This document shows positions 60,405 through 62,253 of a stretch of 64,000 nucleotides of DNA, one piece after another. The notes beneath the pieces were generated by a model that had not been told where the DNA came from, made no database searches, and saw only the letters and a list, made by a program, of their open reading frames with translations. Source of the stretch: Escherichia coli (GTDB lineage: Bacteria > Pseudomonadota > Gammaproteobacteria > Enterobacterales > Enterobacteriaceae); assembly GCF_024502345.1 (NCBI RefSeq), contig NZ_JALDNN010000001.1; one strand, written 5' to 3'. The number at the start of each line of letters is the position of its first letter. Within the stretch, counting starts at the first letter, position 1. Made by a program: the position numbers and the translations under genes.

Positions 60405-60704
60405 TTGCATCTTGACTGGAGAAAAGCCATCACATATTGCCGGGAATATGGCGGATTTTCGTTTAGTACGCTCCGACTATTTATAGAAAGAGATAACATT
60501 GACAATGCTGTTTTTTATTCTGTGTTGTTCGGGTTAAAAATACTTTGTTCTGAAGCATTCCCGGGTTTCAGTCTTGAAGATTATGATGATCTGGAGTTCG
60601 TCCCTCGACCGCATCTCGATCGTTGGGGAGTTTATCAGGAAATCGATAATGTTCTTGATCCTCTCGAAAAAAATATGATTTGTAATGGGCTGTGGCTTTG
60701 TTGA
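60405..60704 (+). CDS. hypothetical protein, 3' end truncated or replaced by IS903 insertion (reading frame terminates inside the IS inverted repeat)
   Basis: 99-aa ORF whose last codons (..GLWLC) are encoded by IS903 IR starting at 60694. Confidence 0.3.
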   Translation: MHLDWRKAITYCREYGGFSFSTLRLFIERDNIDNAVFYSVLFGLKILCSEAFPGFSLEDYDDLEFVPRPHLDRWGVYQEIDNVLDPLEKNMICNGLWLC

Positions 60705-61751
60705 ATAAATCGAACTTTTGCTGAGTTGAAGGATCAGATCACGTATCTTCCCGACAACGCAGACCGTTCCGTGGCAAAGCAAAAGTTCAAAATCACCAAC
60801 TGGCCCACCTACAATAAAGCCCTCATCAACCGTGGCTCCATAACTTTCTGGCTGGATGATGAAGCTATTCAGGCCTGGTATGAGTCAGCAACACCTTCTT
60901 CACGAGGCAGACCTCAGCGCTATTCTGACCTTGCCATCACGACTGTGCTTGGTCATTAAACGCGTATTCAGGCTGACCCTGCGCGCTGCGCAGGGCTTTA
61001 TTGATTCCATTTTTTCTCTGATGAACGTTCCGCTACGCTGCCCGGATTACAGCTGTGTCAGCAGGCGGGCAAAGTCGGTTAATGTCAGTTTCAAAACGCC
61101 CACCCGGGGTGAAATCGCACACCTGGTAATTGATTCCACCGGGCTGAAGGTCTTCGGTGAAGGCGAGTGGAAAGTCAAAAAGCATGGCCAGGAACGCCGC
61201 CGTATCTGGCGTAAGCTGCATCTCGCCGTTGACAGTAAAACACATGAAATCATCTGCGCTGACCTGTCGCTGAACAACGTTACGGACTCAGAGGCCTTCC
61301 CCGGGTTAATCCGGCAAACCCACCGGAAAATCAGGTCAGCCGCCGCCGATGGCGCTTACGATACCCGGCTATGTCACGATGAACTGCGGCGTAAGAAAAT
61401 CAGCGCGCTTATCCCTCCCCGAAAAGGTGCGGGTTACTGGCCCGGTGAATATGCAGACCGTAACCGTGCAGTGGCTAATCAGCGAATGACCGGGAGTAAT
61501 GCGCGGTGGAAATGGACAACAGATTACAACCGTCGCTCGATAGCGGAAACGGCGATGTACCGGGTAAAACAGCTGTTCGGGGGTTCACTGACACTGCGTG
61601 ACTACGATGGTCAGGTTGCAGAGGCTATGGCCCTGGTACGAGCGCTGAACAAAATGACGAAAGCAGGTATGCCTGAAAGCGTGCGTATTGCCTGAAAACA
61701 CAACCCGCTACGGGGGAGACTTACCCGAAATCTGATTTATTCAACAAAGCC
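60694..61751 (+). mobile_element. IS903-family insertion sequence copy 3 (1058 bp, carries a 1-bp insertion; no target-site duplication)
   Basis: IRs at 60694..60711 and 61734..61751; flanks atgggctgt / cctgctgga do not match. Confidence 0.85.
60726..61695 (+). pseudogene. IS903-family transposase gene inactivated by a +1 frameshift
   Basis: ORF track splits it into 60726..60959 and 60856..61695; copy 1 reads gactgtgctggtcatt where copy 3 reads gactgtgcttggtcatt (extra T near 60951). Confidence 0.8.
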
Positions 61752-61752
61752 C

Positions 61753-62253
61753 CTGCTGGAACACATTGATCGTATTGAAGATAATATTACTGAATATGAC
61801 CGGATTTTGTCCCGCATGGCAAAAACAGATCACCGCAGCCAGCGATTGATGGAACTGAAAGGGATTGGTCCCACAACGGCCTGTGCGCTGGTCGCCAGTA
61901 TCGGTAATGCACACGATTTTAAAAATGGGCGACAACTGGCAGCCTGGCTGGGACTAACGCCATCGCAGTACAGCAGTGGTGGGAAATCAAAGCTTGGCAG
62001 GATAACTAAAGCTGGCGATTCGTATCTGCGAACGCTACTGGTTCAGAGGGCTCGTTCGGTTCTGATTGGTGCCGAGAAAAGGACTGATTTATTCAGTCGT
62101 TGGGTCTGTTCACTGGTCGATCGCAGAGGATACTGGCGTGCCGTTGTAGCCATCGCCGCCAAAAACGCAAGGCTGTGCTGGCATCATTGCATTACGGTGA
62201 TGATTTCAGGCTGTACTCAGCCAGCTAAAGCACGAAACAAAATAACCATCTGA
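61753..62253 (+). pseudogene. IS110-family (DEDD) recombinase/transposase, C-terminal ~166 codons only; 5' part removed by IS903 copy 3
   Basis: In-frame translation from the IS903 junction: LLEHIDRIEDNITEYDRILSRMAKTDHRSQRLMELKGIGPTTACALVASIGNAHDFKNGRQLAAWLGLTPSQYSSGGK... (IS110-type C-terminal domain). Confidence 0.7.

Follow-up and report, generated by a model that had tools for sequence, protein, structure and literature searches.

A frameshifted IS903B copy without target duplication between a truncated island integrase gene and an IS1111-type remnant in Escherichia coli

The window analyzed here is a 64,000-nucleotide (nt) stretch of an Escherichia coli assembly (contig NZ_JALDNN010000001.1), and our subject is the third of its three copies of the insertion sequence (IS) IS903B, hereafter c3, together with the two truncated genes that c3 separates. 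The left part of the window is E. coli-type chromosome with ynfE, dcp, the lsr operon, lsrR, lsrK, the ECSE_1600 autotransporter gene and hipBA (NCBIfam matches left of c3 are to YnfE, Dcp, LsrB/R/K, the ECSE_1600 autotransporter and HipA), and two chromosomal contigs used for comparison, L008 (GCA_024502245.1) and L014, match the window at 99.9% identity and have none of the three IS903B copies. An integrative island begins after hipA. Its first gene, at 58793-60133, encodes a tyrosine recombinase, and it is followed on the + strand, at 60120-60693, by the 5′ 191 codons of a second tyrosine-recombinase gene, int2, identified by alignment to an intact 521-residue homolog from E. coli STK77-E. 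c3 occupies 60694-61751 (+ strand), and beyond it, at 61752-62228 on the same strand, lies the 3′ part of an IS1111-type transposase gene of the IS110 family. From 61752 to the window end, the DNA is 99.9% identical to a module found on many enterobacterial plasmids and in plasmid-derived chromosomal regions, which consists in order of IS26, an IS110-family transposase gene, ~1 kb of noncoding DNA, a RelE/Gp49 toxin gene and a helix-turn-helix (HTH) antitoxin gene. A promoter scan gave matches no commoner than by chance.

A pattern search for the exact 18-bp IS903 inverted repeat, run over the whole window, returned six occurrences where none is expected by chance, and these delimit three elements: c1 at 48836-49892 (+ strand), c2 at 52247-53303 (− strand) and c3. 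Both repeats of c3, at 60694-60711 and 61734-61751, are exact, in agreement with an earlier account of the window made from its letters (the sequence-only reading). c3 has the size and repeats of IS903/IS903B (~1,057 bp with 18-bp terminal inverted repeats) and is 99.2 to 99.4% identical to IS903B copies annotated in RefSeq; its homology to the IS903/IS903B family is certain. Base-by-base alignment of the three copies revealed that c1 and c2, both of 1,057 bp, are identical and that c3, of 1,058 bp, differs from them by one inserted T alone. This extra T (GCT[T]GGTC, + strand) gives TT at 60949-60950 where all other copies have a single T; it is the +1 frameshift that had been placed near 60951, and it falls at about codon 75 of the 322-codon transposase open reading frame. 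As a result, the single DDE gene (DDE_Tnp_1 plus DDE_Tnp_1_5) of an intact element is not found in c3. The domains are present but split by the frameshift between an N-terminal fragment of 77 codons (60726-60959, + strand; PF13737 positions 1-42), ending at a stop that the frameshift created, and the remainder of the transposase with the DDE domains in another frame (60856-61695, + strand; PF01609 and PF13737 positions 40-112). With good ends and no transposase, c3 is no longer autonomous.

The extra T is specific to c3. It is missing at the equivalent junction in the comparison loci L023, L024 and L025, and the IS903B copies of L024 and L023B, which are identical to c1, match c3 at every position bar this one base. 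The sequence-only reading had allowed that the frameshift might be a homopolymer sequencing error. However, a change from T to TT is not a homopolymer run, and over the ~18 kb of the window that we compared with near-identical references the only other indel is an older, shared G deletion at 62180-62181, which makes a general pattern of assembly error unlikely. The extra T thus appears to be real.

To the left of c3, the int2 alignment ends at residue 191, where c3 starts. The catalytic Phage_integrase domain (residues 203-376 of the intact homolog, Pfam) is lost, the R-H-R-Y signature is missing, and codon 63 is an in-frame TGA (60306-60308). An uninterrupted int2 allele is available in L016, which is 100% identical to the window over 58589-60693, nonsense codon included, and continues straight through the c3 site (...ATGGGCTGT/TTGAAATGACT, also given as ...ATGGGCTGT/TTGAAATG; here and below a slash marks the joint). 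Because the same nonsense allele is present in another sample at a different context, int2 was dead before IS903B arrived. The loss of the catalytic domain in one of its two tyrosine recombinases may fix the island in place.

To the right of c3, an open frame of 166 codons (61753-62250) matches Pfam Transposase_20 (PF02371, E = 1e-27) and NCBIfam transpos_IS110 (positions 189-336 of 343), which bears out the proposal that c3 abuts a truncated IS110-family gene. The 166 C-terminal codons that had been counted there are real as an open frame but not as a remainder of the parent. Specifically, the parent gene has 340 codons and is broken between codons 182 and 183, and the window keeps the parental frame only for codons 183-325, after which a −1 frameshift (GG at 62180-62181 versus GGG in intact copies) intervenes; the open frame consists of 143 parental and 23 out-of-frame codons, and the true parental remainder is 158 codons (183-340) with its stop at 62226-62228. 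A G-to-A change at 62047 also replaces a Gly with Arg. The fragment had been described as part of a DEDD recombinase. In the intact parent, the DEDD (RuvC-like) domain spans residues 6-149 and Transposase_20 residues 212-286, and the fragment, which starts at residue 183, has the Transposase_20 domain alone, the DEDD domain being wholly absent from the window. The −1 frameshift is common to L001, L023, L024 and many plasmids and, because those three loci carry it too, it predates the IS903B joint.

As had been observed, the flanks of c3 do not match. The left 9-bp flank, ATGGGCTGT (60685-60693, + strand), is int2 sequence with a single occurrence in the uninterrupted allele, and the right 9-bp flank, CCTGCTGGA, is the start of the IS110-type gene fragment. 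The two are alike at 2 of 9 positions and map to unrelated empty sequences, int2 in L016 and the IS110-type gene in L004. Thus, the imperfect duplication that the sequence-only reading had left as a possibility is excluded. For comparison, a control IS903B in E. coli 39EVA (L002) is bounded by a perfect 9-bp duplication. The missing duplication at c3 speaks against simple insertion, not against IS903B membership, and flanks drawn from two unrelated loci require a rearrangement, as had been suggested.

Comparison of the locus across strains showed that the right joint is inherited and that the left joint, at int2 codon 191, which had escaped the earlier account, is specific to the window. An exact look-up of the 145-residue product starting at the ATG at 61816 returned six public contigs (two from GenBank, three ENA metagenome contigs and one from Logan), all of which cross the same joint contiguously (...AAAGCC/CCTGCTGGA). 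Over 61752-64000 (2,249 bp), the right flank matches L023 at 100% identity, as it does L024 over 61752-63091 (1,340 bp), and in both of these loci the IS903B is intact at 1,057 bp and has a Dps-gene region as its left flank, with no duplication. Since the same joint, with another left flank, occurs in six other assemblies, the truncation of the IS110-type gene predates its arrival at the present locus and was not made here by c3, as had been supposed. By these comparisons, the left joint and the extra T appear to be the only features specific to the window. No record in PLSDB or among 5426 complete E. coli genomes spans the c3 junction on either side, a scan of genome contigs gave no exact match to the right junction, and exact look-ups of junction-spanning or copy-specific products of the c3 locus gave no match.

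On balance, we think it probable, with considerable room for doubt, that c3 is a seam at which the chromosome bearing the island was joined to a plasmid-type mosaic by a later IS903B-mediated event, after which the copy decayed. In this history, an IS5708-related IS1111-type element lying upstream of a relE/HTH pair in a plasmid-type ancestor first gained the −1 frameshift near the end of its transposase gene. An IS903B-associated rearrangement then stripped the element of its left end and first 182 codons, and its product, Dps-region/IS903B/CCTGCTGGA with no target duplication, is the arrangement present in at least six other assemblies; both of these steps are shown. A further IS903B-mediated event may next have exchanged the left flank for int2 codon 191, whether by replicative transposition of the module's IS903B into int2 (replicon fusion), by homologous recombination with an IS903B already residing in int2 or by transposition of an IS903B-bounded composite. 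c3 would finally have gained one T, breaking its transposase. IS903 is known to form cointegrates and adjacent deletions, and missing duplications usually stem from recombination between copies or from adjacent deletion (PMC11708052). The sequence-only reading had offered an adjacent deletion or an IS-mediated rearrangement; the rearrangement stands, but a local adjacent deletion is just one of several routes open to IS903B. An event between replicons is favored by the plasmid-type right side and by the lack of such cargo in related islands. Several observations weigh against such a joining. The plasmid-type block has its distal end past 64000, and no second IS903B followed by ATGGGCTGT is seen; the two direct IS903B copies that bound the module in L023 have no matching outer flanks, and movement as a composite transposon is therefore nowhere demonstrated; and a deletion or inversion within the chromosome would look locally just like the three routes above, the differences between them lying only at the far end, beyond 64000. 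No match was returned for the product predicted from the reciprocal 3′ fragment of int2.

Such an intrachromosomal origin would require that the module and its IS903B were already resident near or downstream of the island, the int2 joint then arising by an adjacent deletion from the left end of that IS903B or by an inversion or deletion through recombination with another copy. Adjacent deletions are common for IS903 (PMC11708052), and an IS903B-bounded inversion, the c1/c2 target sites of which are single copy in L008, lies 7 kb away on the same chromosome. In addition, the L016 island allele, 100% identical over 2.1 kb down to the nonsense codon, has an IS903 left end 907 bp further on, and a 907-bp adjacent deletion from an L016-like state would yield the left joint of the window. 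However, the L016 island has a different genomic context with no hipBA upstream and so is not a direct ancestor, the related islands L005, L008, L009, L015 and L017 have no such plasmid-type module downstream, and the window gives no indication of the module at any other chromosomal place. We therefore hold this origin to be credible but unlikely.

The remaining explanations fare worse against the same data. Had an assembler taken a chromosomal int2::IS903B with its duplication and a plasmid-borne Dps/IS903B/IS110-fragment arrangement and mis-joined them through the 1-kb repeat, with the T as a consensus error, the result would be exactly the structure observed, and both the uniqueness of the left joint to the window and the presence of the extra T in no other copy would follow. 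Yet the resolution of three IS903B copies and a 2.3-kb inversion within one 64-kb stretch implies reads longer than the repeat, a copy-specific variant is unexpected of a collapsed repeat, and no indel other than the shared G deletion at 62180-62181 was found in the ~18 kb compared; an assembly chimera is accordingly very improbable. If IS903B had simply inserted into the IS110-family gene here and point mutation had then eroded the 9-bp duplication, the presence of both inverted repeats would be accounted for and nothing more. This explanation is refuted by flanks that match at 2 of 9 positions and come from unrelated sequences, each with a known uninterrupted form (int2 in L016, the IS110-type gene in L004), and by the absence from the window of the missing halves of int2 and the IS110-type gene, and we give it practically no credence.

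c3, the IS1111-type remnant and int2 are all defective, and the seam encodes no functional recombinase. The seam is ordinary IS mosaic scar tissue of an already-known kind, for which no new element or mechanism is needed. Its practical value is for annotation and genome history: it would serve as a boundary marker, where plasmid-type mosaic DNA of the sort found travelling on enterobacterial plasmids together with mcr-9 and heat-resistance loci is attached to the chromosome through IS903B, and it illustrates that a truncation beside an IS may be inherited from elsewhere, not made in place.

The older, inherited joint carries a further feature. In L023 and L024 it reads ...CAGG[GTTAATGA]/IS903B/CCTGCTGGA, where the intact IS110-type gene reads ...TGT[GTTAATGA]/CCTGCTGGA and the native Dps side ...CAGG[GTTAATGA]/TGCACGG (compared at L023 8850-9945, L024 890-1990, L029 1977-2010 and L004 11870-11940). 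IS903B stands at this joint without a duplication and borders exactly on an 8-nt microhomology, GTTAATGA, of the joined sequences. Beyond these 8 nt, the Dps-side flank showed no homology to the IS110-type element, and because the Dps flank is otherwise unrelated to the element, the identity is microhomology and not a diverged copy. A target preference of IS903B as its cause was rejected, as six other flanks or duplications (GCTGGCTTG, CTTAGGTGT, CTCGCTAGG, CGTTACTAA, ATGGGCTGT and TCCATGAGA) are unlike GTTAATGA. The arrangement is not predicted by simple insertion, by recombination between two normally inserted copies or by slippage at the 8-mer; the standard routes each predict an extra 8- or 9-nt copy on one side, and an adjacent deletion would need a coincidence of ~1.5e-5. 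It is conceivable, though we regard it as doubtful, that a microhomology-mediated deletion took up the IS at its break, with no use of the staggered cut that the element makes in a target. The capture of ISs at deletion breaks without duplication is a recent proposal from laboratory evolution (PMC11708052), which the older joint fits loosely. The 8-nt microhomology is the only point of wider interest at this locus, as it is relevant to the question of whether deletion breaks can take up ISs with no target duplication.

Three known systems resemble the joints described here. The IS903B that lies upstream of mcr-9 and cuts pcoS is the same element as c3 (99.2 to 99.4% identity) with exact 18-bp inverted repeats, likewise lacks a 9-bp duplication (CATCACCGC and TCGTTAAGG flank it in L003 and L004) and occurs in the same plasmid neighborhood as the IS110-relE module. 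c3 differs from it in having other flanks and a broken transposase gene, and mcr-9, although listed under joined pieces of plasmid matches, is itself absent from the window. Similar to the IS-associated deletions described for IS150 in the Lenski lines and for IS5 ("IS-Del") in E. coli C (PMC11708052), an IS lies at the joint without a duplication, and this holds for both the ancestral joint (Dps/IS903B/IS110 fragment) and the joint of the window. The IS150 and IS5 deletions were, however, observed as they arose, whereas here the end state alone is seen, and the 8-nt microhomology of the ancestral joint has no counterpart reported for those cases (PMC11708052). Finally, as in Tn903-type composites bounded by IS903 and in IS-mediated replicon fusions, the L023 module lies between two direct IS903B copies. 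Unlike Tn903-type composites, it has no matching outer duplications, and any second copy at the present locus lies outside the window.

In L023 itself, at 6243-17139 of a 5.2-Mb contig, a 7.2-kb unit made up of IS26, a Tn3-family fragment, Dps, IS903B, the IS110 fragment, relE, HTH and ISKpn26 occurs 1.5 times in tandem, and it is this tandem unit that places a 6.1-kb segment between two direct IS903B copies. On the chromosome of E. coli 1218KP (L006 5304-5809), an IS903 right end interrupts another IS110-family gene midway; only 18 nt of this IS903 end are left, beside IS26. As a look-alike of the c3 joint, this arrangement (IS26/18-nt IS903 end/partial IS110-family gene) was set aside because the IS110-family gene is a different one, and the large plasmid-derived region of the 1218KP chromosome was set aside as a model for the locus, as it does not adjoin hipBA within the 77 kb inspected.

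The parent of the IS110-family remnant can be described from six copies in unrelated contexts. The element is ~1,403 bp long, with ~90 nt before the gene and ~290 nt after it, and the window retains ~767 of the 1,403 bp (the 3′ 54%), namely the remainder of the gene and the full downstream region without the left end. The 3′ noncoding region with the right end of the element runs from 62229 to 62518 (+ strand), where similarity among the six copies stops; the end is placed within ~35 nt. Copies are 71 to 95% identical in the downstream region compared with 52 to 80% at third codon positions, and its consensus fold has 5 compensated pairs of 63. Rfam gave no family match in this region, with sub-threshold matches only further right. 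The parent also carries a pair of imperfect subterminal inverted repeats. Of these, AAGGGACTTCCCC, close to its left end, is gone from the window, and GGGGAAGCCCTT, close to its right end, is at 62473-62484, ~35 nt from the point where similarity among copies ends.

This organization is that of the IS1111 type, in characterized members of which the region downstream of the gene encodes a seekRNA and subterminal inverted repeats lie ~7 nt and 3 nt from the ends (PMC11187229). IS5708, IS5075/IS4321, ISEc11 and ISKpn4, IS1111-type members with a seekRNA or bridge RNA, likewise have an N-terminal DEDD domain and Transposase_20, and the parent shares with the type the long downstream noncoding region and, apparently, imperfect subterminal repeats, a layout that fits the published one (PMC11187229), although its right repeat lies ~35 nt from the end of similarity and not 3 nt from the end. 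The parent is 39% identical to IS5075 in protein sequence and ~78% identical in DNA to a copy named IS5708 in RefSeq, and differs in that its own lineage has no specific IS name there. We thus classify the parent as a member of the IS1111 type on the strength of its sequence and the window remnant as a pseudogene, which, unlike such members, is incapable of moving. On a weaker reading, the intact 3′ noncoding region of the dead element could still supply a guide RNA in trans to related transposases.

In different contexts, copies of the IS1111-type element are preceded by similar A-rich, partly palindromic sequence, for example GCTCAAAAAATGAGC; such left contexts are found at L001 3293-3360, at L004 11262-11275 and in the left flanks of L007 and L018-L021. 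Such sequence points to a preference for hairpin-like targets. Within the plasmid module, the left end of the element adjoins IS26 at two positions 10 nt apart, one in L001 and the other in L004.

The other two IS903B copies, c1 and c2, lie in inverse orientation around a 2,354-bp inverted segment (48836-53303 including both copies). This segment corresponds to residues 1-633 at the 5′ end of the ECSE_1600 autotransporter gene, which resumes on the + strand beyond c2. On the left, c1 is flanked by GCTGGCTTG and c2 by its reverse complement; on the right, c1 is flanked by ACACCTAAG and c2, again, by its reverse complement. L008 and L014 have empty sites, with both target 9-mers present once and no IS. 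A replicative inversion by IS903, or two insertions with later recombination, leaves this textbook signature, and the identity of c1 and c2 together with their reciprocal flanks shows recent IS903B activity in this chromosome. The c1-c2 segment was also considered as an mcr-9 composite transposon, a candidate rejected on the ground that its interior is the inverted 5′ part of a chromosomal autotransporter gene.

Homologs of int2 have received three independent IS903 or IS903B insertions, the one in the window being at nt 574 (60693/60694). The insertion in E. coli 39EVA (L002 6011-7067) lies 116 bp beyond the site of the window and has the perfect duplication CTCGCTAGG, and the IS903 left end in L016 (at 12811) is 907 bp further into int2. 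The identical int2 nonsense allele of L016 lies at 11328-11516, with the island in a different genomic context. More broadly, exactly the same sequence of the first island integrase (446 residues) occurs at many genomic sites (58589-60693; loci L008-L017) with varied cargo, which elsewhere includes type I restriction-modification, filamentous-phage genes, HamA/Mrr-type defense genes and a 2016-residue AAA protein. This indicates that the island is one of a family of actively mobile elements, which have paired tyrosine recombinases and a 788-residue protein of unknown function.

Beyond the IS1111-type remnant, plasmid-type noncoding DNA (62519-63273) extends upstream of the toxin gene. Its first 602 bp (62519-63120) are absent from the related locus L018, where a related IS copy directly abuts ATAAATCCCC, and 63121-63522 is 100% identical to L018. 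The segment 62883-62983 (also given as 103 nt) is 85% like a region downstream of IncFII repA in L007, and the structured noncoding DNA of 62519-63120 is probably left over from a plasmid replicon. Also seen there were a near-perfect hairpin (at about 62635-62671), a DnaA-box-like sequence, GTGGATAA, at 62709 and a sub-threshold Rfam match to HgcC on the − strand at 62734-62860 (32 bits versus a gathering score of 50). The RelE/HigB-like (Gp49) toxin gene at 63274-63603 and the HTH antitoxin gene at 63584-63865, both on the + strand, belong to the same plasmid-type module.

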